IMG/VR virus record: IMGVR_UViG_3300021400_000025
Span: 86,479-150,478 of that record
Direction: 5' to 3' (one strand)
Source of the DNA: a virus
Lineage: Duplodnaviria; Heunggongvirae; Uroviricota; Caudoviricetes
DNA length: 64,000 nucleotides
The position numbers and the translations under genes were made by a program. Shown piece by piece: positions 24,956 to 53,030 of this stretch (position 1 is its first letter; every line of letters begins with the position of its first letter). The notes beneath the pieces are model-generated. The model did no database searches, was not told where the DNA came from, and saw nothing but the letters and a program-made list of their open reading frames with translations.

Positions 24956-26128
24956 ATGTTGAAGGTTCAAGAGTTCATCAAGGGCAACTCGGATTGGGAG
25001 TGCTTGCTTTCGTCCGAGCCTTATTGCATCTCAATATCGCACGATACGATGTATGGGCGCGATTTGGTCATGTTCAAGTACGACCAGATTCGCTCTGACT
25101 TGTCCATTCCTCTTGTTCAGGAGTGTCGTGGTCTGATTCTGGATTCAAACACCTTCGAGGTCGTGTCCCATCCCTTCCACAAGTTCTTCAACTATGGAGA
25201 GGAACTGGCTGTGGACATTGACTGGAAAACAGCCTGGACATCCAGTAAGATCGACGGATCCATCATCAAGGTCGTGAATCTGGATGATGACAATTTCCTG
25301 ATTTCAACGAATGGCATGATTGACGCATTCAAGTGTTCTCTGCCTGAGAACTATGGCCGTCCGTTTGAGACCTTTGGCGAGCTGTTTCTGGAGGGAATGA
25401 AGTTCTATGGTCTGACGATGGATGATTTTCCCCGGCTGTTCAAGCCTGGATTCACCTACATGTTCGAGTTGACTTCTCCTTGGAACCAGGTTGTGGTGAA
25501 TTGGAATGAAACCAAGGTGTGGTTCATTGGGGTGAGGGACAACAGGACTGGCGAGGAGATTAGGTTCTCTGACCACGAACTGTCCAAGATCTTCGACACT
25601 CCCAGGGTGTTTCCGATGAGGTCGTTCGATGATGTGGTGAAGGCTGCGAAGGAACTTCCTGACGACGAGGAGGGATATGTGGTGTGTGATTCTGGATTCA
25701 GAAGGGTGAAAGTCAAGTCCCCCCGATACGTCCAGCTCCACTACATGGCCGGCAACCAGATTTGGTCTCCAACGAGGGTCATGGAGATAATCCGGGACAA
25801 CGAGGTGTCGGAGTATGTGGCATACTTCCCCAAGTTCAAGGTGGCGTTCGACGAAATCAAGGCGAAGTACGATGCCTATGTGGATGAACTGGAGGATGTG
25901 AAGGAGGCCATTGACAATCTGATGGTGGTGGAATGGAACATCACCAAGAAGGACTTCGCCAAGTGGGTGTTCACCATCAACACCATCCGCCCTTACTCTG
26001 GGTTCGCGTTCTCCTACTTTGATTCAGTATACGCGAAAGTCAAGAAGGACGATGCCCTGGTCAGGAACGTTGACGAGTACCTTGCCAAGATGCCCACTGC
26101 GAAGTTGGTGGAGGCTCTTGGATTGTAA
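24956..26128 (+). CDS. rnlA: ATP-dependent RNA ligase 1 (T4 RnlA / gp63 family)
   Basis: Track ORF 24926..26128, with the ATG at 24956 lying after SD caaggagc. The motifs VQECRGLIL, KIDGSII (the KxDG nucleotidyl-lysine motif) and EGYVVCDSGFRRVKVKSPRY match T4 Rnl1 ALECRGIMF, KEDGSLV and [20 protein letters not shown]. Confidence 0.8.
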   Translation: MLKVQEFIKGNSDWECLLSSEPYCISISHDTMYGRDLVMFKYDQIRSDLSIPLVQECRGLILDSNTFEVVSHPFHKFFNYGEELAVDIDWKTAWTSSKIDGSIIKVVNLDDDNFLISTNGMIDAFKCSLPENYGRPFETFGELFLEGMKFYGLTMDDFPRLFKPGFTYMFELTSPWNQVVVNWNETKVWFIGVRDNRTGEEIRFSDHELSKIFDTPRVFPMRSFDDVVKAAKELPDDEEGYVVCDSGFRRVKVKSPRYVQLHYMAGNQIWSPTRVMEIIRDNEVSEYVAYFPKFKVAFDEIKAKYDAYVDELEDVKEAIDNLMVVEWNITKKDFAKWVFTINTIRPYSGFAFSYFDSVYAKVKKDDALVRNVDEYLAKMPTAKLVEALGL

Positions 26129-26153: not shown

Positions 26154-26753
26154 ATGAAGATTGTCAACGAGATTGGGTTGAACAGGTTGTTCAACAAGCA
26201 TACCGAGAATGGCTATGTCATGGTGTCTGCTTGCCGCCATGACTGGAGCGATGACGATGAGGTTGAGAATCGCGAAATCAACAACATCAAGACGAAGGAG
26301 CTGAAGGAGGACATCCAGAAGGCCGGCTACCAGTACATCCCTGTCCAAGGTGGATTCGTTGAAGACGATGGCACCGAGGTTGTTGAGAGGTCGTTTCTCA
26401 TCGTCAACTTCAGAAACAAGTCCGGCAAAGGGGAGCCAGCCGGCGACTTCTCCAAGTTGAAGGATCTCGCAATCAGTCTGTGTGGCAAGTACAACCAGGA
26501 TTCAGTTCTTGTGGTTGAGCCCGGTGGCAAGCCAACCTACTACACCCGAGAGGGCGAGGTTGATGGTCAGTTCAATTCTGTTTCTGCAAGAGACGCGGCC
26601 CAGCAGTATTTCACCAGGATTGGTGGTGGAAGGAAGTTCTCGTTCATCGAGGGGGCTTCCCAACCAGGAACAATCAATGGAGTGCGTTCAAGGCGCATGA
26701 CTGGCGAGATTTGCGAGTTGGCCGGCTATGACAGGCGCAGGAAGGGAAAGTGA
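26154..26753 (+). CDS. hypothetical protein (199 aa)
   Basis: ORF track. SD aaggagaaacc. Confidence 0.5.
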   Translation: MKIVNEIGLNRLFNKHTENGYVMVSACRHDWSDDDEVENREINNIKTKELKEDIQKAGYQYIPVQGGFVEDDGTEVVERSFLIVNFRNKSGKGEPAGDFSKLKDLAISLCGKYNQDSVLVVEPGGKPTYYTREGEVDGQFNSVSARDAAQQYFTRIGGGRKFSFIEGASQPGTINGVRSRRMTGEICELAGYDRRRKGK

Positions 26754-26765
26754 GATTTCTTCCCT

Positions 26766-26812
26766 GACCCCCTTGACTTTCAGACCGAAATATGAGATAA
26801 TATAGGTGTCAA
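26766..26812 (+). promoter_or_regulatory. early promoter (ACCCCCTTGACTT-N17-GAGATAATATAGGTG)
   Basis: Member of the conserved promoter family. Confidence 0.5.
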
Positions 26813-28831: not shown

Positions 28832-29212
28832 ATGGGATATGATCTCACAATGACTGTTGGATGCAGGGCAGAAAGGAATTCCAAGCCCCTCCAGAGGATT
28901 GACATGTTCCGTGGGTTGAGAGAATTGACCAAGTGCTTCTCGCATGGGTACAAGATTGCCTCGGTTTTCATGCAATCTTGCGACAGGCGTGGGGAGAAGA
29001 AGTGCGCCCACATACTTGATTACGAATCCCTTGTTGTGAAGTTGTTTGACCTGTCCTTGTCCTACAGCGTGTGTGGAGTCCACCATAGCAACGCGCTTCC
29101 ATTCGTGTATCTGCATCTGATTGAGAACAAGGACAACTCCACCACGAACATTGACTCGCATTTCATTGAGGCGTTGTCCAAACTGTATTTCCAAAAGGAG
29201 ATTGCGAAGTGA
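28832..29212 (+). CDS. member 1 of a tandem paralog family (shared motif DxSLS..R...TNID)
   Basis: ORF track. The DLSLSYSV...TTNIDSHFIEALSKL motif is shared with six neighbouring ORFs. Confidence 0.55.
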   Translation: MGYDLTMTVGCRAERNSKPLQRIDMFRGLRELTKCFSHGYKIASVFMQSCDRRGEKKCAHILDYESLVVKLFDLSLSYSVCGVHHSNALPFVYLHLIENKDNSTTNIDSHFIEALSKLYFQKEIAK

Positions 29213-29550
29213 AGCGTCCAACCAGAAAGAAGTTGCTTGAAGCGTTGACTGGTCTGATATGGGAAAGTTCGTATCGTCCAGTGACCATGGTGAAGATTTA
29301 CCATGTCAACTCCTGGGGAGACCCCAACTTTGAAAGTCAGGAGCTGTTCTCCAACCTTGACGATGTTATTGGCAGGTTGATGGACTTGTCCCTTTCCCAT
29401 AGGATTGTCAAGGTGTCCAGTGCAGAGTTCAAGTATGGCGGTGGAACGTTGGTTGTCTTTCGCGTCATGCAAGACCCAAACTTCAGGACGAACATTGACG
29501 CCGAGATTCTTGACGCAATAAGTAGAGTTGAATTTGGGAAGGAAGGTTGA
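29209..29550 (+). CDS. paralog family member 2
   Basis: ORF track. MDLSLSHRIV...RTNIDAEILDAISRV. Confidence 0.55.
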   Translation: MKRPTRKKLLEALTGLIWESSYRPVTMVKIYHVNSWGDPNFESQELFSNLDDVIGRLMDLSLSHRIVKVSSAEFKYGGGTLVVFRVMQDPNFRTNIDAEILDAISRVEFGKEG

Positions 29551-29553
29551 TGA

Positions 29554-29901
29554 ATGGCGTATAGTTCTGACATGGATGGCATTAAGGCAAATGCCGTAGT
29601 GAAAACACTCAATGGGGAAAAGGTGGCGAAAGTGATAGTTGAGGAGGTGTTCAATGGGGAGTCATGCCACAGGACTTCAATCCAGAGCATGGACGCTTTG
29701 CTCTCCATCATGTTCGACAAGTCAATTGAATTCAGAATAATTGGAATACAGGTGTACAGGTTTGAGGGTGGCAACTATGTGTATTTCACGTTGAAGAGGA
29801 GCGAGGACTTCACAACGAACATCGACGAAGAGATGCTGAAGGCGATAAGCAAAATCAAATTTGGGAGTGAAATTGAATTTCATGAAGGAGCACAAAAATG
29901 A
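29554..29901 (+). CDS. paralog family member 3
   Basis: ORF track. ...TTNIDEEMLKAISKI. Confidence 0.55.
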   Translation: MAYSSDMDGIKANAVVKTLNGEKVAKVIVEEVFNGESCHRTSIQSMDALLSIMFDKSIEFRIIGIQVYRFEGGNYVYFTLKRSEDFTTNIDEEMLKAISKIKFGSEIEFHEGAQK

Positions 29902-30086
29902 CTGACGCATTCAATCAAGAAGTAAAAGTTGGCGACAAGGTTGTGTACATCAAGAAGGTTGCTGGATGCAGCAGCAACATTCTTCTGGCGAAAGGCACAA
30001 TCACGGAAATCAAGGGACGCATCATCAAGGTGACAGGCCACAACTATGGTGTGATGTCCCAGTCCGTGATGAAACTGGAGGCATGA
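29898..30086 (+). CDS. hypothetical small protein (62 aa)
   Basis: ORF track. Its start overlaps the previous stop (ATGA). Confidence 0.45.
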   Translation: MTDAFNQEVKVGDKVVYIKKVAGCSSNILLAKGTITEIKGRIIKVTGHNYGVMSQSVMKLEA

Positions 30087-30090
30087 TGGC

Positions 30091-30462
30091 ATGGGCAAGC
30101 GGTCTCAGACATGGAACAAGCCACTTTCACGAAGGATGCTGGAAAAGCAGCTCAATGAACTGGTTGGCATGAGCGTGAACAAGCCAGTGGCAAAGATTAC
30201 CGTGTATCTTGTGTTCGGCTTTGACGACCCCAACGCCCTCCGCGCGGAGGAATTCAATGGTTCGGACATGAAAAACAACCTCTTTGGCTATCTGATGGAC
30301 AAGTCCTTGACGAGTAGAATCTTGGACATACATTGGTGCAGTATGCTTGACGTGATGACGATTGGCATAACCATTCAGACATTTGCCGATGGCAGGGTGT
30401 TGAGCGAGACCAATATTGACTCCAGGACGATGGAGTGGTTTGAGAAAATGAGGATGAAGTGA
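30091..30462 (+). CDS. paralog family member 4
   Basis: ORF track. MDKSLTSRILD...ETNIDSRTMEWFEKM. Confidence 0.55.
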   Translation: MGKRSQTWNKPLSRRMLEKQLNELVGMSVNKPVAKITVYLVFGFDDPNALRAEEFNGSDMKNNLFGYLMDKSLTSRILDIHWCSMLDVMTIGITIQTFADGRVLSETNIDSRTMEWFEKMRMK

Positions 30463-30463
30463 C

Positions 30464-30589
30464 ATGGACAACAAGAACATTCTGATTCACGTCCTATGCC
30501 AATTGGCCGGCTTCCTGATTGGAATGGCTCTCGGACTTGGCTTGGTTGCGTTAATCTGCAAGATGGGCTGGCTGGAGAAGTTTCTATGA
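30464..30589 (+). CDS. hidden 41-aa single-TM peptide (MDNKNILIHVLCQLAGFLIGMALGLGLVALICKMGWLEKFL)
   Basis: Manual translation. The ATG at 30464 overlaps the previous stop, and its own TGA overlaps the next ATG (ATGA). It is below the track's 60-aa cutoff. Confidence 0.4.
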   Translation: MDNKNILIHVLCQLAGFLIGMALGLGLVALICKMGWLEKFL

Positions 30590-30939
30590 GGAAAACAATC
30601 ACCAGAAAGGAACTGGATTCCAAGTTGAGGCATTTGGTGCAGGAAAGCAAGACCTGTGATGTTGTTTGTGTGGATGTGTATTCCAACAGCAACAACCTTG
30701 ATACATTGGACTGCGCTTGGGTCAATGGCTTCTATGGAAAGAAGATGAAGGACGATTTGTTTTGCTTCTTGATGGACAAGTCCCTTACAAGCAGGATAGT
30801 GGATGTCCATATGGGGACAATAATGGGATTGTTGGCTTTGCGCATAACCTTGTTTTCCCAGGACGAAAGACCGTTGAAGAGAACCAACATTGATGGAAAG
30901 ACAATGAGGATGCTTGAAAGAGTGAGGTTTGTGTCATGA
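30587..30939 (+). CDS. paralog family member 5
   Basis: Track ORF 30496..30939. By alignment with its paralogs the start is the ATG at 30587. MDKSLTSRIVD...RTNIDGKTMRMLERV. Confidence 0.5.
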
Positions 30940-31268
30940 AGACGTCTGATGAGATAATAGAATTGCTCAAGAAGCACATGTCTTTGTTCAACAATATGTT
31001 TTCAGAAGTGGTTTTGCGTCTGGATTTTGACACGAAGATACAAGTCAGAAACACAGATTCCCTATTGGAGAAGATGCATGAATTGTCCTTGTCGTATGTC
31101 GTTGTGGACATGATGTCGTATTCTTCGTTTGACCAACCTCCCATTGTGGAAATCCTCATTCAGCATTCAATTGATGGGCAGACGAACATTGATGCCGACT
31201 TCATGGAGGAATTGGCGAAATTGAACATATTGCAAGGAGGTTGGAGCAATGACTACAGAAGAAACTAA
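30936..31268 (+). CDS. paralog family member 6
   Basis: ORF track. HELSLSYVVVD...QTNIDADFMEELAKL. Confidence 0.55.
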   Translation: MKTSDEIIELLKKHMSLFNNMFSEVVLRLDFDTKIQVRNTDSLLEKMHELSLSYVVVDMMSYSSFDQPPIVEILIQHSIDGQTNIDADFMEELAKLNILQGGWSNDYRRN

Positions 31269-31566
31269 ATGCGAACTGTGTGGGAACGAATGCAAGCCAG
31301 ACAAGCATCATTTAATCCCACAGGCCCAGTCACGCCACAAGAACAAGTACCTCAAGACTGACGAGGGCAATTTCCTCTGGATATGCACCGAGTGCCATTC
31401 GCAGATACATGCCCTGTTCTCCAACTACGAATTGAAGACCCTCTACAACACCAAGGAGGCTCTGCTTGCCGAGCCGAGGATGCACAAGTTCGTTGAATGG
31501 CGCAGGAAGCATCCAGACTTCAAGGGCAGTTCCAAGATGGCGAAGGAACGGAGACCAAAACGATGA
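31249..31566 (+). CDS. HNH endonuclease
   Basis: CELCGNEC...DKHHLIPQAQ...NFLWICTECHSQIH shows the Cys pairs and the HH..N..H core of the HNH family. Confidence 0.75.
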   Translation: MTTEETKCELCGNECKPDKHHLIPQAQSRHKNKYLKTDEGNFLWICTECHSQIHALFSNYELKTLYNTKEALLAEPRMHKFVEWRRKHPDFKGSSKMAKERRPKR

Positions 31567-31625
31567 CAGTCGCGTAGATGGCAAACGTCCTTGGTATACT
31601 CTAACAAATAGAAAGGAAAACAACA

Positions 31626-32399
31626 ATGAAAACAGCAAAACTAGCAACCACAATCATGTTAACCACAGTCAGCTTCCTCGTTGGATGCTCACAGATTGAT
31701 TCCGACCAGGCGGGCTTCAAGACCCAGTTCGGAAAGCCAGACGAGACCGTACTTGGTCCTGGTCTCTATGGCATCAACCCCATTGGTGGCTCAATGGTGA
31801 AATATTCCATAAGGGATACGAGGTTTGACCTGACAACCCAGGCGTTTACGAAGGACATGCAGGAGGCTACCTTCAATGTTTCAGTGGTTATCGCGCCTGA
31901 CAGGAGCCGTCTTGTGGAAATCCACACGAAGTACGGCGCTGAGTACGCGAAAGTCCTGCTTGAACCTGCCCTTGAGGACACGCTCAAGAACATCGTCGGT
32001 AATTGGGAGGCTGAGCAGCTTGTCAACAACCGAACCAAGGTGGTTGCAGCGATTAGCGAGGGGCTTCAGAACGAGTTGAAGGGACTTCCCATCCAGTTCA
32101 AGAACTTCAAGGTGCTGAACATAGACTTCTCCGACGCATTCGAGAAGAGCATTGAGGAAAAGGTGGTTCAGCAGCAGGCCGCGCTCAAGGCGAAGAACAA
32201 GACCTCCCAAGTCAAGGAAGAGGCTGAGCAGAAACTGATCCAGGCAAAGGCCGAGGCGGAGGCAATCACCATTCGCGCAAAGGCTTTGAACGAGAACAAG
32301 GACATCGTGTTCCTGAACCTCATTGAGAAGTGGGATGGCAAGGCTCCGTCCACAATCTCGTTTGGGGGGAGTTCTGGACTGTTCCTTCCCACAAAGTGA
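31626..32399 (+). CDS. SPFH/band-7 (prohibitin/stomatin-like) domain lipoprotein
   Basis: The signal peptide ends in a lipobox (LVGC followed by S). The QQQAALKAKN...AEAEAITIRAKAL segment is typical of the SPFH C-terminus. A tggtatact -10 lies upstream. Confidence 0.65.
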   Translation: MKTAKLATTIMLTTVSFLVGCSQIDSDQAGFKTQFGKPDETVLGPGLYGINPIGGSMVKYSIRDTRFDLTTQAFTKDMQEATFNVSVVIAPDRSRLVEIHTKYGAEYAKVLLEPALEDTLKNIVGNWEAEQLVNNRTKVVAAISEGLQNELKGLPIQFKNFKVLNIDFSDAFEKSIEEKVVQQQAALKAKNKTSQVKEEAEQKLIQAKAEAEAITIRAKALNENKDIVFLNLIEKWDGKAPSTISFGGSSGLFLPTK

Positions 32400-32436
32400 A
32401 GTTCCAAGATGTCCAACAAGAGGAAGGGGAGGTGAA

Positions 32437-32598
32437 ATGACGATGATGACCAAGGAAGACCTCATTCAGAATTACGGTTGTGTGGATTGTGATGCAACCG
32501 ACAAAGCAGCTGAGAAGTACAAGAAGGTGGAAGATGACTTCCGAGAAGCATTGGACAAAAGGCGAGAAGAACTCGGATTGCAGCCAATTGGCGATTAA
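32437..32598 (+). CDS. small hypothetical protein (53 aa)
   Basis: Within track ORF 32323..32598. The ATG at 32437 follows SD ggaggtgaa. Confidence 0.4.
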   Translation: MTMMTKEDLIQNYGCVDCDATDKAAEKYKKVEDDFREALDKRREELGLQPIGD

Positions 32599-32640
32599 AC
32601 CCCCTTGACTTTGAGGCGGCGATGTGATATACTATAGAGG
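32599..32640 (+). promoter_or_regulatory. early promoter (ACCCCCTTGACTT-N17-TGTGATATACTATAGAGG)
   Basis: Member of the conserved promoter family. Confidence 0.5.
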
Positions 32641-32668
32641 TATACAAGTTTCAAGAGGAGATAGAAAG

Positions 32669-32878
32669 ATGACATCCTACAAGGCAATGCCAAAGGTGGA
32701 GAGAAAGGCTTTCAGAGCCAAATTGGAAAAGGGGTTCAACGACCTCGGATACTGGTTTGGTGTTGGCAGCATTGGAAAATGGTACGCAACTCCCTTTTCC
32801 GGTGGAAAGGATATTGTGTTCAAGGATATCTTTGACGCAGAGAGGTTCTTGGATGATGTAAAGAAGGACGAGGATTAA
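32669..32878 (+). CDS. hypothetical protein (69 aa)
   Basis: Track ORF 32624..32878. ATG at 32669 after SD aggagatag. Confidence 0.45.
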   Translation: MTSYKAMPKVERKAFRAKLEKGFNDLGYWFGVGSIGKWYATPFSGGKDIVFKDIFDAERFLDDVKKDED

Positions 32879-32918
32879 ACCCAGACCAAAACGATAACCA
32901 CAAAAAGGAGAATACGAT

Positions 32919-33101
32919 ATGTGCAGATGGAAAAATGAATTCCACACGGATGACTATTATGGTGGAGACGATTATGATTGCCCCGCAGATGATCCCAACT
33001 ACAGTGAATCTGGGGAACATGGCTTCCATACAGACGATTATTGGGGTGGGAACGATTATGATTGTCCAGACGATGTTCCAAGTCAATTCAGATTTCCCTG
33101 A
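32919..33101 (+). CDS. small acidic protein with an internal duplication (HTDDY(Y/W)GG(D/N)DYDCP, 2 copies)
   Basis: ORF track. The repeat is visible in the translation. Confidence 0.45.
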   Translation: MCRWKNEFHTDDYYGGDDYDCPADDPNYSESGEHGFHTDDYWGGNDYDCPDDVPSQFRFP

Positions 33102-33128
33102 ATCCAAAAAGGAACGGAGACCGAAGAG

Positions 33129-33512
33129 GTGATACTTGACGGCAACAATGGTTGGTTTTGGACATTGACTGAACTTCCCGAGATGGCCAAGGGGAAGTTG
33201 GTGAAGTTCAATGTGATTGAGCGCAAGATTGAACCTGAATTCGGTTCAAGTTCGTTGGGTTTCGTTTTCGTTGACGAATTTGACCTTGCATATGATGTCT
33301 CCGATTCGGACACTTTGCTTGGAATCCTTTTCGATGAATCCCTCAAGTCAAAGTGCATTGCGGAAATTGATGTGCAACAGGCATATGGACATTTCGCTTC
33401 GGATGGGGTGATTGGACTTGCCATCAACATTGTTCTGGTTCAAGGCGCTGACAACCATACCAACATCGACTCAAATGTTCTGGACTGCTTTTCAAGGATC
33501 ATGAATAGGTAA
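33129..33512 (+). CDS. paralog family member 7 (diverged)
   Basis: ORF track. FDESLKSKCIAEID...HTNIDSNVLDCFSRI. Confidence 0.5.
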   Translation: MILDGNNGWFWTLTELPEMAKGKLVKFNVIERKIEPEFGSSSLGFVFVDEFDLAYDVSDSDTLLGILFDESLKSKCIAEIDVQQAYGHFASDGVIGLAINIVLVQGADNHTNIDSNVLDCFSRIMNR

Positions 33513-33513
33513 G

Positions 33514-33819
33514 ATGAAGTATTGTGTTCCAGATTTGCTTGACAAAATCAAGGCGAAGTACGAAGACTCTGACAGCAAGTCAATCAGTATGTACAGGTTG
33601 ATGCTTCAGTCGCACTCTGGAGATCCACCTGTATTCAGCATTGCGTCGGAAGAGATACTGGAATACGATGACCTCTGCGTGAGAATGTTTGACCTTGATG
33701 TGCATGGATGGGAGGTCATGGATGTTGAGGATTCCTCTAGGAACTTCACTTCCCCCATTGACATGTACGATACCGTTGAATTCATTTTGGTTACGATAAC
33801 CCTGTTCAGAAAACTATGA
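33514..33819 (+). CDS. hypothetical protein (101 aa)
   Basis: ORF track. Confidence 0.45.
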   Translation: MKYCVPDLLDKIKAKYEDSDSKSISMYRLMLQSHSGDPPVFSIASEEILEYDDLCVRMFDLDVHGWEVMDVEDSSRNFTSPIDMYDTVEFILVTITLFRKL

Positions 33820-34148
33820 CAAGAAAGGAAACAAAAGAAATGAGACATGTAGTCAGCAAGAACCGCGAAAATGTCCCCTATCAAGGATGCTGGGGATACC
33901 ACAGCTACAACTTCACCTGCCCCACGAAGGACAGAATCTACATCAAGGTTCTGAGGTTCGTTGAATCTCATCCGGGATGCAAGCGTTCTGACATTCAGTT
34001 TGGCGTATGGGGAAACCACAACAAGAGCAATTCCACCCTGTTCGCCCAGATGCTCTACCACGACATCCTTGACTACAACAGGAAGTTCGAGTACAAGGTC
34101 ACTCGCAAGGGAAAGAACCTTCTGCGCAAGGTCGGAAAGATGGGATGA
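33816..34148 (+). CDS. hypothetical protein (110 aa)
   Basis: ORF track. Confidence 0.45.
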   Translation: MTRKETKEMRHVVSKNRENVPYQGCWGYHSYNFTCPTKDRIYIKVLRFVESHPGCKRSDIQFGVWGNHNKSNSTLFAQMLYHDILDYNRKFEYKVTRKGKNLLRKVGKMG

Positions 34149-34190
34149 CCCCCTTGACTTCCGAGAAGCAATGTGATATACTGTAGGGGT
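34147..34190 (+). promoter_or_regulatory. early promoter (ACCCCCTTGACTT-N17-TGTGATATACTGTAGGGG)
   Basis: Member of the conserved promoter family. Confidence 0.5.
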
Positions 34191-34227: not shown

Positions 34228-34992
34228 ATGTCTGAAGACAGATCCTGGGAACTTGCCCCAGTCTTGTGCAAGTTGAAGAGGAGCGAAGTTCCTCTTGTGT
34301 CGAAAGTGCCACTTGACAAGGCAACTGACCTTGTTGACAAGTGCTTTGACTACAAGTTCACCGGCGAGTCCAAGGTATATCCCTATGAGATTCCCGAGAA
34401 GATTCTGAACCTGGATGTGAACATCATCCAGATTGTCGGACCTTCTGGCTCTGGCAAGTCCACATTCCTCAAGGCGTTCAAGAAGGCTGGTTGGAACTAC
34501 CCCACGAAGTCCTACGACAACACGAAGGCTGTGATTTCCAACTTCATTGACGATCCTGATGATGGTCTCTCCGCCCTCCAGTCTGTTGGGTTGAGTTCTA
34601 TGCCTGTCATCTGCCGTCCTCGCAATGTTCTCTCAACCGGCGAGGGCTTCCGAGCAGACATGGCTCTGAACCTGGGCGATAGGGTCATGGTTGACGAGTA
34701 CACAAGCGTGATTGACCGAAACGTGGCCATGGCCGCTTCCAATGGCATTCAGAAGTACATCCGCAGGAAGGGCTTCAAGAACGTCATTCTCTGTGGTTGC
34801 CACTATGATGTCATTCCCTATGTCAAGCCTGACATCCTCATTGACCTCCAGACAGGCGTGGTATATGATTTCAGGGACAAGGACACAAGGGAACGATTGC
34901 TAAAAAAAGCATCGACCTCTCCTTCCGCCAAATCGAAGGAGCCGGGAAGCGAGAGGTCTGGAAAAAGGTATTCGCTCCACATCACTATCTGA
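34228..34992 (+). CDS. ABC-type ATPase (nucleotide-binding domain only, 254 aa)
   Basis: Walker A GPSGSGKST. ABC signature-like LSTGEG. Walker B RVMVDEYT. D-loop SVID. H-loop CGCH. Confidence 0.65.
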   Translation: MSEDRSWELAPVLCKLKRSEVPLVSKVPLDKATDLVDKCFDYKFTGESKVYPYEIPEKILNLDVNIIQIVGPSGSGKSTFLKAFKKAGWNYPTKSYDNTKAVISNFIDDPDDGLSALQSVGLSSMPVICRPRNVLSTGEGFRADMALNLGDRVMVDEYTSVIDRNVAMAASNGIQKYIRRKGFKNVILCGCHYDVIPYVKPDILIDLQTGVVYDFRDKDTRERLLKKASTSPSAKSKEPGSERSGKRYSLHITI

Positions 34993-35672
34993 CTGGCAAG
35001 CTTGCCGACAACGCCGACTGCTGGCTCCTTGAATGGGGCGAAACCCTTGTTGGGTTCTGCGCAGTCATGCCCCAGCCATCTGGGACAATGGGTGGAGGAT
35101 GGCGGGTCACTCGTCTCGTAATCCTCCCAGACTTCCAGGGTCTTGGGGTTGGAAGCAGGTTCCTTGACACGATAGCCGAGATGTATGTCAAGCGTGGTCT
35201 GAAGTTGTACATCCGCACAGCCCACATCAAGCTGGGACACTACCTCTCCAAGAACGCCAAGTGGCGCACAACCGCAAGGAATGGCAAGAAGGGCGCGTTC
35301 TCGAATGGGCGCATCAACTGCGTCAAGACCGAGGAGAGCCGACACTCTGTGAATCGGGATTGCTACTCGTTCGAGTATGTTGGCGAAGAGTTCAGGACGA
35401 AGCCCCACAAGGAGATTGTGGTTGACAGCCTCAAGCGCATTGACATGGACGCGATGAAGCGGTATCTTGCTGGGTTGAAGCAGTTGAACTACCTGACGGT
35501 TGTCCACAATGGCGTGCATTCGGCATCTGCCTTGAACGTCCTCTGTAGGGAAATGGGCATCCGCACAGAACTCCTCTACATCAGGGGAGAGGTGTCCAAG
35601 AAGCACCTTGGGGACATGAAGATTGTCTCGTTCGACAAGAATGGCAAGCCCAGGTTCAGAAAGGTGAGTTGA
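34869..35672 (+). CDS. GNAT-fold acetyltransferase domain encoded in the -1 frame. It has no start codon before ATG 35067, so it is probably fused to the ABC ATPase by a -1 frameshift at A7 (34902-34908)
   Basis: The open frame begins right after TGA 34866. GNAT motif A is QGLGVGSRFL. The N-terminal GNAT strands lie upstream of ATG 35067, where there is no ATG, GTG or TTG and no SD. Confidence 0.45.
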   Translation, partial: FQGQGHKGTIAKKSIDLSFRQIEGAGKREVWKKVFAPHHYLTGKLADNADCWLLEWGETLVGFCAVMPQPSGTMGGGWRVTRLVILPDFQGLGVGSRFLDTIAEMYVKRGLKLYIRTAHIKLGHYLSKNAKWRTTARNGKKGAFSNGRINCVKTEESRHSVNRDCYSFEYVGEEFRTKPHKEIVVDSLKRIDMDAMKRYLAGLKQLNYLTVVHNGVHSASALNVLCREMGIRTELLYIRGEVSKKHLGDMKIVSFDKNGKPRFRKVS

Positions 35673-37511: not shown

Positions 37512-38558
37512 ATGTGGAAAGGAAACAACGGCAAAATGATTGAAGTGGAGTCAAAGGCAAGCAGGGTCTCAATTCCAGTATCCAGAGCAGTGTTCTCGGA
37601 TTCTGCGATAAGCCTCTACGACATCTTCAACAAGGAGGTGTTTGACGATACTGTTTCTGTCCAAGATGGCTTCCAGAAGTTTGTTGAATTGGTGTATTCT
37701 GGATTCAGTTTCCAGCCACCAACGATGAACACGGTTCCAGTCAAGTTCCCAGAGAATGTCCCAGATGTTGACCCCAACATGGTCCTTGTGGCAGTGAGTG
37801 GTGGACTTGACTCCATAGCGCAGATGCTTTTCCTCAAGGAAAGTGGGCGTTCAATCGTTGCATACACGATGGCTAACATGAACCGAAGTTGTGGTGGTCA
37901 GGAACTCAAGGCGATGAAGGCTGTATGCGAGAAGGTTGGTGTTCCGATTGTTGAGGCGAGATACGTTGGCAACTTCAAGAAGGACAATCCATACAGAAAG
38001 CACTGGGCAGAGAACCCAATCAAGAACCAGATGATAATGGCAACGATGGTGGATTGGTGCATCGAGAATGGGTGCAGGACGATTAGCCTTGGAGAGAAGG
38101 ACAACTTCTTCCTCAAGGACTGCGTTCCAGGAACAAACTTCACCGACGCATCCGAGGTGTCGAGGACTTTCATTGAGTGCGTGAACAGACATGTTGGGAT
38201 TGACTATCTGACGATGGATTTGTCCATCACAAAGCTGGACGAGTTGAAGATTGCCATGAAGTATGGGGTTGAGGATCTTCTGTTCAGTTGCTTCTCGGCC
38301 CAATCCTCCAACAAGTGCCATGAAATGAACCAACGGAAGTATGGCATCACGTTGTGGAGGAACAACTGTGGATGCTCTTGCAGGAAGTGCGCACACTACA
38401 ACCTTCTTCTCCATTATGGTGGGATCAAGGCGTTCCCACAGGATTTCGTGGACGCCTGTTGGAGAAAACTCTACTCCACGAAGGAATTGAAAAACACGTT
38501 CAACCCAAGCATGGACGAAAAGACGAGGATGGAGAACTTGTTCAACTTTTCCGCGTGA
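37512..38558 (+). CDS. queC: PP-loop ATP pyrophosphatase, QueC-like (7-cyano-7-deazaguanine synthase family) with an N-terminal extension
   Basis: SGGLDS PP-loop motif, plus a C-terminal Cys cluster (CGCSCRKC) like the QueC zinc site. The length (348 aa) is atypical for QueC. Confidence 0.5.
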   Translation: MWKGNNGKMIEVESKASRVSIPVSRAVFSDSAISLYDIFNKEVFDDTVSVQDGFQKFVELVYSGFSFQPPTMNTVPVKFPENVPDVDPNMVLVAVSGGLDSIAQMLFLKESGRSIVAYTMANMNRSCGGQELKAMKAVCEKVGVPIVEARYVGNFKKDNPYRKHWAENPIKNQMIMATMVDWCIENGCRTISLGEKDNFFLKDCVPGTNFTDASEVSRTFIECVNRHVGIDYLTMDLSITKLDELKIAMKYGVEDLLFSCFSAQSSNKCHEMNQRKYGITLWRNNCGCSCRKCAHYNLLLHYGGIKAFPQDFVDACWRKLYSTKELKNTFNPSMDEKTRMENLFNFSA

Positions 38559-39590: not shown

Positions 39591-40843
39591 GACCCGCGCT
39601 GTATTCGCCTTGGCGAATCACCCCTACGTTCCATAGGTACTTTAAGATTTTTCTCGACAAGGTCCTTGATGTTCAACATGTTCTGTGCGGCATGGATGTC
39701 TCTGTCTTGTTCGTATCCACACTAACACTTGTATGTCCTATCATTCAAGGATAGTTCGTTCATCTTATGGCAATGAGGACACCACTTCGTTGTTGGGATG
39801 TACTTGTCCAATATGATGACATTATCAAGTTTCATCAACTTGGATTTGATTGTTCCCATGCAACTGTGTTGAATAACTTTTGACATTCCTTTTTGCTTGT
39901 GCCATTCTGCCAGTTGCTCGTCTTGTATCACGATTGTGTCATATTGCTTTAGCATATGAACTATCTTGTTTGCCTTGTCTTTTTTCTTATTCGTCAGCTT
40001 CTGGTACTGACGACGGATTCTCTTGATTGTCTTGTATCTCCTGTTTGAACCTTTCTTTTGACGTTGCAGTTTCTTCTGCAACATCTTGAGTCGTTCACTT
40101 TCTTCAACAGATACGTCAAGTTTCTCACCTTCTGAAGTCGTTATGTTCGTTTTGATGCCAAAATCCAGACCTATTTCCTTGTCGTTGGTTTTGGTTTTTG
40201 GCATCTTGTTCTTGTCTATGTAGCATGTCACCTTAAGATAATAGCCATCTGGTTTCTTCAACAAATTTGCATTGGCATATTCATCTACATTCGATAATTG
40301 ATGTGTTCCACGAACTAATATCTTGCCATGTATTCCTTGTATCTTGATCTTGTTTTCTGACTTGAAACTATATGTCTATCCATATTGCTTGAGTGGAATG
40401 CAATTCAATTCAGACTTGAACTGCAAGTTGCCAAATTTCTAATGTCCCCTTTTGACAAGTTGTATTATGGCCATTTGATTGGAGACCATTCTTGCCAAGA
40501 TTGCCTGCTTCTATGCTGCCGACAAGTATTTCAATTCAGATTGAATCAAGTTCTTGTCCTTGTCGTAGTGGTTTACTGTTTTGATGTTTGTGGAGTTGAT
40601 GTCGGATAATCTCAATCCAGATTGTTGATGCAGATTGAGGACATGATTGTAGAACCACTTTCCCTCAACAAAGAGCATGTCAAGTTCTTCGTGTTGGCGT
40701 TTGTTCAATCGTTTCTCTACAATCTTTAGTTCATATGACTTGACGACTTGGTTCTACCTGCGAAGTCTTGTTTGGCTTCGGGTTGCAATAATCTTGTTCT
40801 TCTTTTCGTCAGAACAGACCAATCTATTGTCAATATCCTTCAT
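39566..40843 (-). CDS. tnpB: IS605/IS1341-family TnpB (RuvC-like RNA-guided nuclease). Intact only if 5 in-frame TAGs (40754, 40511, 40439, 40376, 39722) are sense codons
   Basis: Manual minus-strand translation gives one frame from ATG 40843 to TGA 39566, broken only by TAGs. RuvC-I is EIGLDFGIKT, RuvC-II is VIQDEQL, the zinc finger is CPHC...C(TAG)CGY, and RuvC-III DRDIHAAQNMLNI lies after TAG 39722. Track ORFs 39722..40264 and 40511..40708 are fragments of it. Confidence 0.65.
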
Positions 40844-40982: not shown

Positions 40983-41384
40983 TTGAACTGTGAAGCAATA
41001 GGACAGGACGGATACATGTACACAGTAAAGGCAAACATTCCACAGTACGAGCCAAAGAACGCGCCACCAAAGAGCCTCATGGACACCTTGAAGATGGACA
41101 AGTTCAAGGAGTTGATGTCGGGTATCGAGAAGTCTGGCGTGTCACCAGAGGAGAAGCAGTTTCTCAAGATAGCCGCGTTCAGGCATGTTGTGTTCAACTA
41201 TGGGAAGATTGCCGACTATTATGCCTGCGCCTCTCCCGAGATGCAGAAGCTGATGGAGGACTCCGCCCTTGTGATAATCGACATGGACGATGCGATTGCG
41301 AAGGGCTATGTGCGCCTTTCCGAGTCAATCAAGAAGATAGTGGCGAAAAGGCTCGCTGACGAGGGGAAGACGGATGCGAAATGA
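40983..41384 (+). CDS. hypothetical protein (133 aa)
   Basis: ORF track. A tgtataattgaac -10 lies upstream. Confidence 0.5.
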   Translation: MNCEAIGQDGYMYTVKANIPQYEPKNAPPKSLMDTLKMDKFKELMSGIEKSGVSPEEKQFLKIAAFRHVVFNYGKIADYYACASPEMQKLMEDSALVIIDMDDAIAKGYVRLSESIKKIVAKRLADEGKTDAK

Positions 41385-42246
41385 CTTCTGCATATTCTGT
41401 CTGACCTACAAGAGGCCGGACAACATGTACACGGACAAGACTCTGCGCGAGGCTGGGTATACTGGCGACATCCAGTACATTGTTGGGGACGATGATCCAA
41501 CCGTTGGAAGGTACATCGAGAAGTATGGGGCCGACAAGGTTCACGTTTTCAACAAGGAAGAGGTTGGAAAGACATTTGACACCTGCGACATAGAGGGTTC
41601 AAACAAGGTCATAGTGTACGCAAGGAACTATTGCTTCACCGTCGCCAAACAACTTGGGTTGAAGTATTTCGCCCAATTCGACGATGACTACGATAGGTTC
41701 GAGTACAGATTTCCAGTTGGGGAGAAGTTGAAGACAATCAACGTGAGGGAGTTCGATCAGATAGTTGACCTCATGATTCAGCTTCTTGACGACACCGGCG
41801 CCCTGACTTGCGCCTTTGCCCAGAATGGGGATTTCCTCGGAGGGGTTCAAGGGGACGTGACACACAACAGAATGAAGAGAAAGGCGATGAACTCGTTTTT
41901 CTGCCGAACTGACAAGCCATTCAAGTTCTTTGGAAGGATCAACGAGGACGTGAACGCCTACTGCACCCTTGGTTCAAGGGGAGAGCTGTTCTTCAGCGTT
42001 GTTGACGTTGCGCTCCACCAGAAGACAACCCAATCCAACAAGGGTGGGATGTCGGATGTCTATGTTGATGATGGCACGTACCTCAAATCGTTCTACACGG
42101 TGATGAACTGTCCATCTTTCGTGAAGATAGCTGCCATGGGGAACACCCCCGAGACAAGGCGCATACACCACAGGGTGTCGTGGGAGACTGGAGTTCCAAA
42201 GATAATCAGCGACAAGTACAGAAAGCCAAGGGAAGGATTGGATTGA
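41374..42246 (+). CDS. hypothetical protein (290 aa) with a DxD-like acidic motif (QFDDDYDRF), possibly a glycosyltransferase-like enzyme
   Basis: ORF track. The functional guess is weak. Confidence 0.4.
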   Translation: MRNDFCIFCLTYKRPDNMYTDKTLREAGYTGDIQYIVGDDDPTVGRYIEKYGADKVHVFNKEEVGKTFDTCDIEGSNKVIVYARNYCFTVAKQLGLKYFAQFDDDYDRFEYRFPVGEKLKTINVREFDQIVDLMIQLLDDTGALTCAFAQNGDFLGGVQGDVTHNRMKRKAMNSFFCRTDKPFKFFGRINEDVNAYCTLGSRGELFFSVVDVALHQKTTQSNKGGMSDVYVDDGTYLKSFYTVMNCPSFVKIAAMGNTPETRRIHHRVSWETGVPKIISDKYRKPREGLD

Positions 42247-46720: not shown

Positions 46721-46795
46721 GCAATCAAGGTTTTGTTGATGAAATCAATAACCCCCTTGACTCCTGAGGGGGTTTTGTGGTATACTGTAAGTGTT
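46721..46795 (+). promoter_or_regulatory. operator-like palindromes (GCAATCAAG, TTGAT-gaa-ATCAA) followed by an early promoter whose -35 lies inside a CCCCC/GGGGG hairpin with a following TTTT
   Basis: Near-identical 45-bp element at 52951..52990. The CTTGATTGCATCAAG palindromes at 60731..60762 are related. Confidence 0.5.
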
Positions 46796-52950: not shown

Positions 52951-53030
52951 ATTGATGCAATCAAGGTTTTGTTGATTTCATCAACAACCCCATTGACTTA
53001 CCGACCAAATTATGGTATACTATAGATGTT
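52951..53030 (+). promoter_or_regulatory. operator-like palindromes (TTGAT-gca-ATCAA, TTGAT-ttc-ATCAA) followed by an early promoter (CCCCATTGACTT-N17-TATGGTATACTATAGATG)
   Basis: A copy of the element at 46721..46795. Confidence 0.5.

Follow-up and report, generated by a model that had tools for sequence, protein, structure and literature searches.

The window analysed here, a stretch of 64,000 nucleotides, is 100% identical to a sheep-rumen contig of 416,990 bp, a giant phage-like element of ~417 kb. On its plus strand we found seven genes (F1 to F7) of one small-protein family, which lie among the following genes and candidate promoters. E values given for the members are from the leave-one-out HMM search described below.

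26773–26801, plus strand: sigma-70-like promoter candidate, TTGACT-17-GATAAT with a TG extension, upstream of the F1–F6 operon
28832–29212, plus strand: F1, family member, 126 aa, pI 8.6; E 7.9e-13
29209–29550, plus strand: F2, family member, 113 aa, GTG start overlapping the F1 stop; E 2.7e-14
29554–29901, plus strand: F3, family member, 115 aa; E 3.4e-14
29898–30086, plus strand: DUF7205 gene, 62 aa, non-member within the array; PF23835 (precomputed Pfam, identical locus L001)
30091–30462, plus strand: F4, family member, 123 aa; E 9.5e-14
30464–30589, plus strand: o41, hydrophobic 41-aa ORF, single transmembrane-like, between F4 and F5; non-member
30586–30939, plus strand: F5, family member, 117 aa; E 6e-12
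30936–31268, plus strand: F6, family member, 110 aa, pI 4.65; E 2.1e-10
31249–31566, plus strand: HNH gene, small nuclease gene, 105 aa, overlapping the F6 3' end by 20 nt
31626–32399, plus strand: SPFH/Band-7 lipoprotein-like gene; Pfam Band_7 2.6e-30, phrog_200 lipoprotein 4.7e-48
32605–32633, plus strand: sigma-70-like promoter candidate, TTGACT-17-TATACT with TG (repeat D7), upstream of o84b, o65, F7 and F8
33129–33512, plus strand: F7, family member, 127 aa, pI 4.3, GTG start; E 5.7e-11
33514–33819, plus strand: F8, possible truncated and diverged member, 101 aa; family HMM E 0.005–0.075

The initial annotation had described a tandem, head-to-tail array with overlapping stop and start codons. 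Such overlaps (ATGA or GTGA) occur at F1/F2, F3/DUF7205, o41/F5, F5/F6, o65/F7 and F8/o110, but the remaining junctions in the array have gaps of 1–5 nt. Likewise the paralogs do neighbour one another, but the DUF7205 gene and the 41-aa ORF are interspersed and F7 is set apart by ~1.5 kb of inserted cassettes; a frame check also moved the start of F5 from 30587 to 30586. One of these cassettes, the Band-7 gene between HNH and F7, is absent from the relative L024, where the gene order is HNH, a 50-aa ORF, F7 and F8. The long GTG form of F2 is backed by orthologs of 114–117 aa (74–94% identity), and the long form of F7 by 22 orthologs of ~127 aa (75–83% identity). The DUF7205 gene gave no match to the family HMM and is 85–93% identical in relatives with a dN/dS of 0.08–0.16, while a version of the 41-aa ORF occupies the corresponding position in L008 (80% identical, dN/dS 0.31).

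All seven genes could be linked by pairwise BLASTP with the search space set to the window size (F4–F5, E 7e-19; F2–F3, 1e-10; F2–F4, 2e-7; F1–F3, 6e-7; F1–F6, 1e-5; F2–F7, 2e-4), despite identities of only 17–37% over their full length and at most 39% locally; the closest paralog of F4 is F5, at 37%. When an HMM was built from six members and searched against the 923 six-frame ORFs of the window, the omitted member was recovered at E values of 2e-10 to 3e-14, and the best unrelated ORF reached only E ≥ 0.013. Keeping the tested sequence out of the profile makes this test non-circular. The motif TNID occurs nine times in the 80,355 six-frame residues of the window, seven of them inside the family. 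The seven plus-strand genes are thus true paralogs, and the strongly diverged seven-member family with two conserved motif blocks that had been proposed is confirmed. That the shared motifs are a compositional coincidence among unrelated or non-coding ORFs can be dismissed: besides the BLASTP links and leave-one-out recovery (1e-10 to 1e-14), each copy has orthologs in independent metagenomes, every dN/dS is below 1, and the family alignment predicts a confident common fold.

The family as a whole falls into about 170 clusters at 50% identity, none of them named and all from metagenomes, and is without a Pfam, PHROG, PADLOC or PDB match. Pfam searches with the seven window members and 135 distant members returned neither PF12699 nor any Imm family. 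For anti-defence families, Pfam and PHROG gave scattered single weak matches and none common to the members, and with PADLOC-DB profiles no family reached E ≤ 0.1. Copies in bacterial chromosomes were not detected; the only genome matches to the motif pattern span no more than the 9–10 residues searched. Arrays contain 1 to 10 copies, and related phages of 414–434 kb carry at least two or three arrays each. At the syntenic locus, where Rnl1, a 289-aa ORF, DUF7205 and HNH are fixed flanking genes across relatives, the copy number is 7(+1), 4(+1), 1(+1), 1, 4 or 6–7. Arrays elsewhere hold 4, 6–7, 2 and 10 copies and adjoin topoisomerase II, DNA methylases and a sigma factor. A member beside S-AdoMet lyase is also found in an unrelated contig of 39% GC.

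Each paralog has its own orthologs in other metagenomes, at 55–98% identity. F1 has 24 orthologs of at least 55% identity (66% and dN/dS 0.49 in L024), F3 orthologs are 85–88% identical and those of F6 51–98%; the F4 ortholog in L024 (76%) and the F5 ortholog in L008 (85%) gave dN/dS values of 0.35 and 0.26. F2, the most widely retained copy, gave 0.25–0.39, and F7, which has a longer β2–β3 hairpin, 0.60 against L024. The initial annotation had called the family rapidly diversifying and proposed a dN/dS check. With ortholog values of 0.25–0.60, against 0.07–0.28 in neighbour genes, the orthologs are under purifying selection that is 2–3 times more relaxed than in the neighbours, and no gene-wide positive selection was seen. 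Local identity of at most 39% here, and never above 48% between paralogs within any array seen, means that there are no recent duplicates. The paralogs are therefore ancient, and their turnover consists of gain and loss of whole genes and not of ongoing duplication: rapid change does apply to which copies are present (1, 1, 4, 4, 6–7 or 7 at the same locus), but not to their sequences. In view of the missing positive selection and recent duplicates, an acute arms race is not demonstrated.

The members are cytoplasmic α/β proteins of ~110–130 aa. Conservation is concentrated in the C-terminal ~60 aa, and the N-termini are the least conserved part, with an extension of 30–120 aa in some relatives. 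S61, T94, N95, I96 and D97 (numbering of the protein starting at 29209) are invariant in the seven members and 126 relatives. Among 58 diverse cores S, N and I remained invariant with T in at least 90% of sequences, and in the ~170 clusters (near-)invariance is limited to S, T, N and I, the Asp being replaceable (TNIT, TNIS, HELSL). A structure prediction, which had also been proposed, gave a confident AlphaFold model of F2 from the family alignment (pLDDT 89.2, pTM 0.82) with no significant structural neighbour. Its elements run α1-β1-(short β)-α2-β2-β3-α3, with S61 directly after α2 and TNID directly before α3. The conserved scaffold comprises α2 ending in (L/M)(F/M)D(L/K)SL, the β2–β3 hairpin and the TNID that opens the last helix.

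Within ortholog groups α2, DLSL, β2, β3 and TNID are near-constant, and entropy peaks in the β2–β3 loop, the β1–α2 linker and the C-terminal tail. Copies differ from one another in the N-terminal helix, the β1–α2 linker, the β2–β3 tip, the C-terminal tail and net charge (pI 4.3–9.2). As loops are variable in most protein families, the entropy pattern is weakly diagnostic. On element order alone, the model would be compatible with a β-grasp (core β-β-α-β-β, mixed sheet order 2-1-4-3); the β-grasp folds taken as the closest known are the protein L B1 domain, ubiquitin-like LC3B/UBL3, MoaD-like Mth1743 and the motifs in Nudix and glutamine synthetase, and the model had no significant structural similarity to any solved β-grasp domain.

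The presence of an HNH endonuclease among the members was also borne out. Its product contains CELCG...HHLIP...CTECHSQIH, a CxxC...HH...CxxCH arrangement, and matches Pfam HNH (PF01844) at E 5e-4 and 20.6 bits, just under the gathering score of 21.4, as well as 13 PHROG families, most of them annotated as HNH endonuclease (best 6e-5). The gene is in place in five relatives (L004, L006, L008, L024 and L025; 77–90% identity), which makes it a resident of this locus; a recent homing insertion is not evident. Other neighbours are RNA_lig_T4_1 (T4-type RNA ligase 1), S-AdoMet lyase, TAGT and an N6/N4 DNA methylase, with AAA_28-NADAR in addition in relatives. Near-consensus plus-strand sites of the form TTGACT-N17-TATACT with a TG extension number five, with none expected (the exact pattern TTGACT-N15-19-TATACT matched five times, as against zero in shuffles), and related sites lie upstream of F1–F6 (26773) and of F7/F8 (32605); these promoter calls are consensus matches alone. 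Together with the non-structural neighbours, the predicted promoters agree with the early-region setting assigned earlier, in that the locus resembles an 'early-like' accessory region that host RNA polymerase could read. Host-type promoters and nearby counter-defence genes would fit early accessory genes.

Our best guess is a binding role in host interaction or anti-defence. At a probability of roughly 0.4, we propose that this old gain/loss multigene family encodes non-enzymatic, early-read binders, with each copy aimed at a different host factor. The genes would be read early from the host-type sigma-70-like promoters, and the variable loops and surface of each copy would bind its own host factor, probably neutralising or redirecting it in counter-defence or host takeover. 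The invariant Ser, which ends helix α2, and the Thr-Asn-Ile-Asp would hold the fold together, the T-x-x-D of TNID fitting a classical helix N-capping box; alternatively, this unchanging polar motif could be where a common ligand or partner binds. Variable copy number between fixed flanks and a dN/dS higher than in neighbours indicate the accessory character of the genes. The functional proposal is based on gene context and on how the copies vary, the proteins having no similarity to known anti-defence, defence or host-takeover proteins, and the arrays beside topoisomerase II, DNA methylases and a sigma factor are equally compatible with a function in DNA or RNA transactions of the phage.

This last point bears on the unlikely alternative that the proteins are the phage's own nucleic-acid-binding or regulatory proteins, small modulators of transcription, translation or replication with differing sequence specificities. 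A basic N-terminal helix, K(R)xxTRKKLLxxL, is conserved in F2, F4, F5 and many relatives, and arrays lie among RNA and DNA ligases as well. However, other copies are strongly acidic (pI 4.3–4.7) and without this helix, no helix-turn-helix, zinc-finger or known RNA-binding signature is present, and most copies are dispensable in close relatives, which argues against core regulators. That S, T and N are strictly invariant in ~170 clusters, at an identity of otherwise 17–30%, could alternatively mean that a DLSL and TNID core docks all copies on one partner (for example a protease, nuclease, polymerase or modification enzyme of phage or host), with the variable N-terminus and loops bringing in substrates in the manner of F-box-type receptors. 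Variable and sometimes extended N-termini and the many copies per genome are in keeping with such adaptors, but the motif positions in the model suit plain structural roles (the α2 end and the α3 N-cap), and the arrays do not all share a conserved partner gene, HNH and DUF7205 being found only at the Rnl1 locus; we regard this as rather unlikely. It is improbable that the members are enzymes, perhaps remote relatives of Nudix-like α/β sandwiches, in which Asp/Ser from DxSL and Thr/Asn/Asp from TNID make up a novel small active site. The Asp is replaceable, leaving only S, T, N and I, and a pattern search of the member proteins found no Nudix box, P-loop, EF-hand or Cys/His cluster, which argues against an enzyme. 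The Nudix box GX5EX7REUXEEXGU was absent from all eight proteins as a strict or loose regular expression, Pfam NUDIX gave no match and the Nudix fold no significant match.

The adjoining nuclease raises the prospect of immunity or antitoxin-like inhibitors of phage nucleases such as HNH, in arrangements like those of polymorphic-toxin immunity arrays, which likewise set tandem small α/β paralogs beside an HNH nuclease gene. At this locus the array always includes the small HNH gene, and a metagenomic chimera (P0137) joins an F7-like N-terminus to an HNH C-terminus. Yet arrays of 4–10 copies elsewhere (L019, L018 and L023) have no toxin or nuclease neighbour, L025 retains HNH with only one clear member, the contig is phage-like and Pfam immunity families gave no match, so that we give this little credence. 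Packaging into the virion, as internal or ejected proteins whose conserved C-terminal core would serve packaging, seems very improbable. T4-type hyperplastic internal-protein (Ip) loci contain small, strongly diverged genes, of which at least one (IPI*) is anti-restriction; the Ip proteins are packaged and have in common an N-terminal sequence for capsid targeting and cleavage. The two cases are alike in being runs of diverged small genes with one short common segment in a large virulent phage, their content varying between close relatives; in contrast, the present family has no sequence similarity to the Ip proteins, is conserved in its C-terminal two-thirds and is most variable at its N-termini, where no conserved targeting or cleavage motif is found. 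Packaged paralogs in which one terminus is conserved are known from large phages: the phiKZ head/inner-body paralogs gp92-97, 153, 162 and 163 carry a PF12699 C-terminus, and several tolerate insertions (PMC12676376). These too are multi-copy jumbo-phage paralogs with a conserved C-terminal region and individually dispensable copies, but they are larger virion proteins, whereas the family described here has no PF12699 match and is encoded among non-structural genes behind predicted host-type promoters.

For the proposed host-directed binders, a possible working analogy is offered by the staphylococcal superantigen-like (SSL) cluster. SSLs are secreted bacterial immune-evasion binders with OB plus β-grasp domains: old side-by-side paralogs of one fold with diversified surfaces, in which every copy binds its own component of host defence. 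They are not homologous to the phage proteins, for which binding is only proposed. The phage family itself is undescribed but of a familiar kind. A bolder version, which we consider doubtful, would see in the family a new fold that serves rumen and gut giant phages as a repertoire of interchangeable inhibitors or adaptors, a dedicated multigene 'binder library' for phage counter-defence. On a rigid scaffold locked by a Ser...Thr-Asn-Ile-Asp network, two loops would be hypervariable and the N-terminal helix variable, and at least eight old copies per genome, in several arrays, would each act against a different host defence or housekeeping target, with whole copies reshuffled by recombination to match host defences.

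Downstream of F7, the gene at 33514–33819 (F8) may be a truncated eighth copy. Its single-sequence AlphaFold model is uninformative, at a pLDDT of 46.7, and hhalign aligned it to the family from α1 to β3 with P 4.8e-4 and a probability of 32%. The protein carries an MFDLDV block and TSPID in place of TNID, and the last helix is missing. F8 adjoins HNH or F7 in L006, L024 and L025, at 56–74% identity and a dN/dS of 0.35–0.50.

Between 28.8 and 33.8 kb the window consists of densely packed + strand genes, seven of which (F1-F7) encode products of 110-127 amino acids that can be aligned end to end. These genes and those interspersed with or following them are listed here.

Genes of the family array and its immediate surroundings
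28832-29212, + strand, F1
29209-29550, + strand, F2
29554-29901, + strand, F3
29898-30086, DUF7205 gene, interspersed in the array
30091-30462, + strand, F4
30464-30589, + strand, ORF of 41 aa between F4 and F5 that contains a single long hydrophobic stretch
30586-30939, + strand, F5
30936-31268, + strand, F6
31249-31566, small HNH gene following F6
31626-32399, Band-7 gene, inferred insertion resembling a cassette
about 32599-33128, segment carrying a candidate promoter plus two small ORFs (o84b and o65), inferred insertion resembling a cassette
33129-33512, + strand, F7
33514-33819, F8?, the gene after F7 and a possible truncated eighth copy

Global identity among the seven products is only 17-37%. 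Pairwise BLASTP with a search space sized to the window linked all of them (E values of 7e-19 to 2e-4), and profiles built from six members, when run against the 923 six-frame ORFs of the window, found the omitted member at E values of 2e-10 to 3e-14, with the best unrelated ORF at 0.013 or above. S61 and T94-N95-I96-D97 (numbering of the F2 product) are invariant in the seven proteins, which account for seven of the nine occurrences of 'TNID' in 80,355 translated window residues. These searches and the invariant residues exclude chance as the source of the shared motifs, and they bear out the seven-member, diverged tandem paralog family proposed in the initial annotation. The overlapping stop and start codons described there are real, and an HNH gene is indeed present at the array, coming after F6. 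The fifth member starts at 30586, one base from the 30587 given previously. The genes do lie in tandem, but the head-to-tail array is not a pure one, as the DUF7205 gene and the 41-aa ORF are interspersed. In a 434-kb relative the same position holds an 80% identical counterpart of this ORF, whose conservation in place together with a dN/dS of 0.31 suggests that it probably encodes a real small membrane peptide.

F8? carries an 'MFDLDV' block, and its alignment with the family spans helix 1 through strand 3; it lacks TNID and the last helix. Its similarity to the family is borderline (HMM E values of 0.005-0.075; hhalign P of 4.8e-4 with a probability of 32%), and its single-sequence AlphaFold model (pLDDT 46.7) was too poor for use. 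In the window about 1.5 kb separates the HNH gene from F7. The corresponding order in L024, a relative with a syntenic locus, is HNH, a 50-aa ORF, F7 and F8; the Band-7 gene and the promoter-containing segment therefore look like insertions, which part F7 and F8? from the rest of the array. A 24-nt repeat (31543-31566 and 33109-33132, 83% identical), which encodes 'KERRPKR' and a stop, sits at the 3' end of the HNH gene and again just before F7, marking the ends of the insertions (compare L024 2899-3802). Because the HNH gene itself keeps its position in five relatives, a recent homing insertion of this gene was rejected. Two 67-nt copies, 75% identical and 84 nt apart, lie at 32929-33079 and encode a repeated 'FHTDDYxGGxDYDCPxDxP' peptide in the frame 32919-33101, which overlaps the alternative ORF 32935-33132 of the public gene call. 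In P0137, a metagenomic protein of 119 aa, the first ~74 residues are F7-like up to 'LFDKSLKS' and are followed by the C-terminal half of the HNH protein ('DEGNFLWICAECHSQIH...'); it represents either a natural deletion fusing F7-like and HNH genes or an assembly chimera.

A profile of F1-F7 retrieved 177 proteins from a collection of 5.8 billion, none of which has a name or a Pfam domain. Exhaustive profile searching of 1.84 billion cluster representatives gave 171 clusters at E ≤ 1e-3, including a 613-aa leucine-rich-repeat protein that was a false positive caused by repeated 'TNID', and the family comprises about 170 clusters at 50% identity. Distant members have in common a core of ~57 aa, whose consensus reads 'xDxxxxxLFDLSLxHxIx...SxDxxTNIDAxVIE'; ahead of it, their N-terminal part is variable and 40-120 aa long. 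When the gappy alignment of distant members served as database query only 17 matches were obtained; the clean core gave 108, again without a name or an informative Pfam domain. No family common to the members emerged from Pfam, PHROG and PADLOC scans of the window proteins or from Pfam and PHROG scans of 135 distant members, one of which matches phrog_26846 (unknown function), and a sequence-profile search of the PDB returned no relatives. Neither megablast of the region nor tblastn of F2 and the core consensus matched any of 50,697 GenBank phages; at this sensitivity the family is therefore not in cultured phages or deposited huge-phage genomes.

Locus searches of IMG/VR with F2 or its orthologs found no relative. 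The pattern 'TNIDADVIE' revealed further tandem arrays elsewhere in 414-kb and 434-kb genomes of that database. In two genomes, arrays of four and of six to seven copies lie directly upstream of topoisomerase II genes, and an array of two copies lies near a DUF2201 metallopeptidase. Ten consecutive copies are present on a 6.8-kb metagenomic contig, and a contig of 39% GC has two, one of them adjoining an S-AdoMet lyase gene. A degenerate DNA pattern for 'TNIDADVIE', scanned against 185,579 prokaryotic species, each represented by one genome, gave eight matches. All were rejected as chance because only the motif itself matches, inside unrelated ORFs, and therefore no bacterial chromosomal copies were seen with this sub-motif alone. 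Judged by these searches, with prokaryotes scanned by the sub-motif alone, the family is confined to phage-like contigs.

Positions 23183-43512 of the window match a 416,990-bp contig of an ENA re-assembly (SHIW14-1_SAMN02144230) with 100% identity, and pieces of this contig are present in NCBI assembly GCA_001684375.1 (AUXO01), the metagenome that Shi et al. 2014 (PMC4158751) obtained from sheep rumen. The same locus occurs on related contigs of 334,673, 430,597 and 433,894 bp, and IMG/VR classes relatives of 433,895 bp and 414,060 bp as viral genomes. Nearly all window genes are on the + strand, and there is one tRNA-Arg. The window encodes a T4-type RNA ligase 1, an S-AdoMet lyase, a PP-loop ATPase, a TET-associated glycosyltransferase, a DNA methylase and an NAD-dependent DNA ligase. 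Relatives encode a split type II topoisomerase (GyrB-like, 644 aa, and subunit-A-like, 464 aa), a sigma-70-family protein and a weak match to a Gp10-type baseplate protein.

Genes found at loci of relatives
L018 1070-1834, - strand, sigma-70-family protein
L018 4296-8576, - strand, split type II topoisomerase
L020 957-1511, - strand, weak Gp10-type baseplate match

We treat the source as a giant phage on the basis of gene content and the IMG/VR classification rather than of a capsid or terminase gene seen here. The largest window ORFs (474-746 aa; 5936-8020, 10166-11590, 15502-17742, 19097-20599 and others) match nothing in Pfam-A or PHROG at E ≤ 1e-3, and the best GenBank-phage match of the RNA ligase, from an uncultured 484-kb phage, is only 37% identical; the genome is very far from anything described.

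By sequence divergence the paralogs are old. Within any array (the window, the syntenic loci L006 and L008, and the further arrays L018, L019 and L023) no two copies are more than 48% identical, and ongoing tandem duplication was rejected on this ground. DNA repeats between window copies are 63-75% identical over 40-65 nt and located at the motif blocks. Each window copy has its own orthologs elsewhere, which at 55% identity or more number 24 for F1, 16 for F2, 4 for F3, 2 for F4, 1 for F5, 11 for F6 and 22 for F7. Among relatives, flanking genes of the syntenic locus stay in place (RNA ligase 66-71%, a 289-aa ORF 67-86%, DUF7205 85-93% and HNH 77-90% identical), and the family copies vary.

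Family copies at the syntenic locus
window: F1-F7 and F8?
L024: F1, F2, F4, F7 and F8?
L025: F2 and F8?
L004: F2 only
L008: four copies
L006: six to seven copies

Between L024 and the window, identity is mosaic (95% for F2, 66% for F1 and 78% for the 289-aa ORF), a pattern that points to the exchange of modules by recombination.

For pairs with unsaturated dS, Nei-Gojobori dN/dS was 0.25-0.60 for family members versus 0.07-0.28 for their neighbours; more distant comparisons were concordant, but saturated. The family genes are thus real and constrained, and their proteins evolve two to three times faster than those of neighbouring genes. These ratios do not bear out the rapid diversification initially proposed, and there is no gene-wide positive selection. 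Within ortholog groups, variable sites concentrate at the tip of the hairpin formed by strands 2 and 3, in the linker before helix 2 and in the C-terminal tail; helix 2, the DLSL block that ends it, both hairpin strands and TNID are near-constant. Copies also differ in net charge (pI 4.3-9.2) and in loop length, the hairpin being longer in F7 and the loop preceding TNID longer in F4 and F5.

An AlphaFold2 model of F2 built with a 126-sequence alignment was confident (pLDDT 89.2, pTM 0.82) and comprises a helix (6-22), a strand (25-33), a short strand (45-47), a second helix (50-60), two strands (64-73 and 80-88) and a last helix (98-105). In this model the invariant serine comes right after helix 2 and T-N-I-D right before helix 3. 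T-x-x-D is a classical helix N-capping box, so the simplest reading is that these residues would have a structural role. Foldseek found no significant neighbour of the model in the PDB (best E value 0.09) or among the BFVD viral models (best 0.01, TM < 0.5, all uncharacterised proteins). Many of the weak matches (protein L B1, LC3B, UBL3, Mth1743, Nudix enzymes and glutamine synthetase) we take to be beta-grasp folds or folds containing one. The predicted order strand-strand-helix-strand-strand fits the beta-grasp pattern, and a beta-grasp-like fold may serve as a lead only. Mean-field covariation for strand pairing yielded mostly gap and alignment artefacts.

A class of promoter-like sequences on the + strand combines TTGACT, a 17-nt spacer with a TG extension, and TATACT (TTGACT-N17-TGnTATACT, extended -10). 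Exact matches to it number five in the window and zero in 100 shuffles, and close variants occur at 26773 and 24893.

Near-consensus sigma-70-type sites in the window
22364-22392, + strand
24893-24921, + strand
26773-26801, + strand, heading the gene run that contains F1-F6 and HNH
32605-32633, + strand, heading the F7/F8 run
34154-34182, + strand, the next site after 32605
46757-46786, + strand
52993-53021, + strand

Two of the copies lie within a longer 43-nt repeat (32599-32641 and 34148-34190). Terminator-like sites were at chance level (13 versus 12.1 expected). The promoter sequences suggest that these operons would be transcribed by a host polymerase of the sigma-70/sigma-A type, with early or at least host-dependent expression, and that the host may use canonical -35/-10 promoters, which we presume to be unlike those of Bacteroidota.

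The most economical reading, to which we assign a probability of roughly 40%, is that the family consists of non-enzymatic binding proteins built on one scaffold. It draws on the conservation throughout of only Ser, Thr, Asn and Ile, both Asp being replaceable, and on the lack of a catalytic or cofactor motif (EF-hand, P-loop and Nudix-box motifs were absent by regular expression). It draws further on divergence of surfaces and loops around a fixed core and on the dispensability of individual copies between close relatives. Finally, the genes sit behind host-type candidate promoters and among homologues of phage counter-defence genes. Their setting includes RNA ligase 1, S-AdoMet lyase and DNA-modification enzymes, with NADAR in relatives. 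In other phages RNA ligase 1 repairs cleaved tRNA, S-AdoMet lyase acts against restriction, and homologues of the DNA-modification enzymes and of NADAR counter host defences.

Against binding proteins of this kind stand the lack of a link to any known anti-defence protein, the absence of gene-level positive selection and of recent duplications, and the position of other arrays next to topoisomerase, methylase and sigma factor genes. Phage-internal nucleic-acid-binding regulators are an alternative in whose favour one subgroup of the family has a conserved basic N-terminal helix. Another alternative is an adaptor role, in which the invariant motif would be a docking site shared by all copies, and the copies might also be a small new enzyme, inhibitors of the adjacent HNH nuclease or packaged internal proteins. 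The family behaves similarly to two known cases, the variable internal-protein loci of T4-type phages and the phiKZ head proteins, which are paralogous with a conserved C-terminus (PMC12676376), and shows a looser resemblance to tandemly arranged immune-evasion binders, for example the staphylococcal SSLs; it belongs to none of the three, as their testable defining sequence features are all absent.

Paralog expansions of small unknown proteins in very large phages are already a familiar phenomenon. Hardly any characterisation exists of giant phages from animal guts; most large ORFs of the window lack a Pfam or PHROG match, and the family offers a practical entry point, with several arrays per genome. 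It is of moderate interest because it is large, found on phage-like contigs only and confidently foldable without a structural neighbour, and, being absent from Pfam and PHROGs, it deserves a database entry under either reading. Copy content that shifts between close relatives is typical of accessory genes meeting variable host factors. If the copies inhibit host defences or machinery, they would constitute many new small binders on one scaffold and would shed light on the ability of very large phages to handle a diversity of hosts; if they are phage-internal regulators, they would represent a new small nucleic-acid-binding or adaptor fold.

Five genes of the window (24926-26128, 26154-26753, 37512-38558, 41374-42246 and 42251-43645) form a likely counter-defence and DNA-modification cluster, listed as T4-type RNA ligase 1, S-AdoMet lyase (PF23780), PP-loop ATPase (tRNA_Me_trans/QueC-like), TET-associated glycosyltransferase and N6/N4 DNA methylase, a hint that the DNA of this phage may be hypermodified. 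Downstream of the promoter at 34154, an AAA/ABC-like ATPase (34228-34992, + strand; weak AAA_23) adjoins a weak GNAT-like acetyltransferase (35067-35672, + strand), a pair that the syntenic regions of L004, L006 and L008 lack. A 160-aa OrfB_IS605 (TnpB-like) fragment lies at 39722-40204 on the - strand of an otherwise + strand region (Pfam match recorded for L001, the identical public locus). The + strand at 62015-63724 encodes a protein of 569 aa that carries BspA-type leucine-rich repeats (LRR_5, E value 8e-12), and LRR_5 genes are also found near the syntenic locus in L008, L009 and L021.
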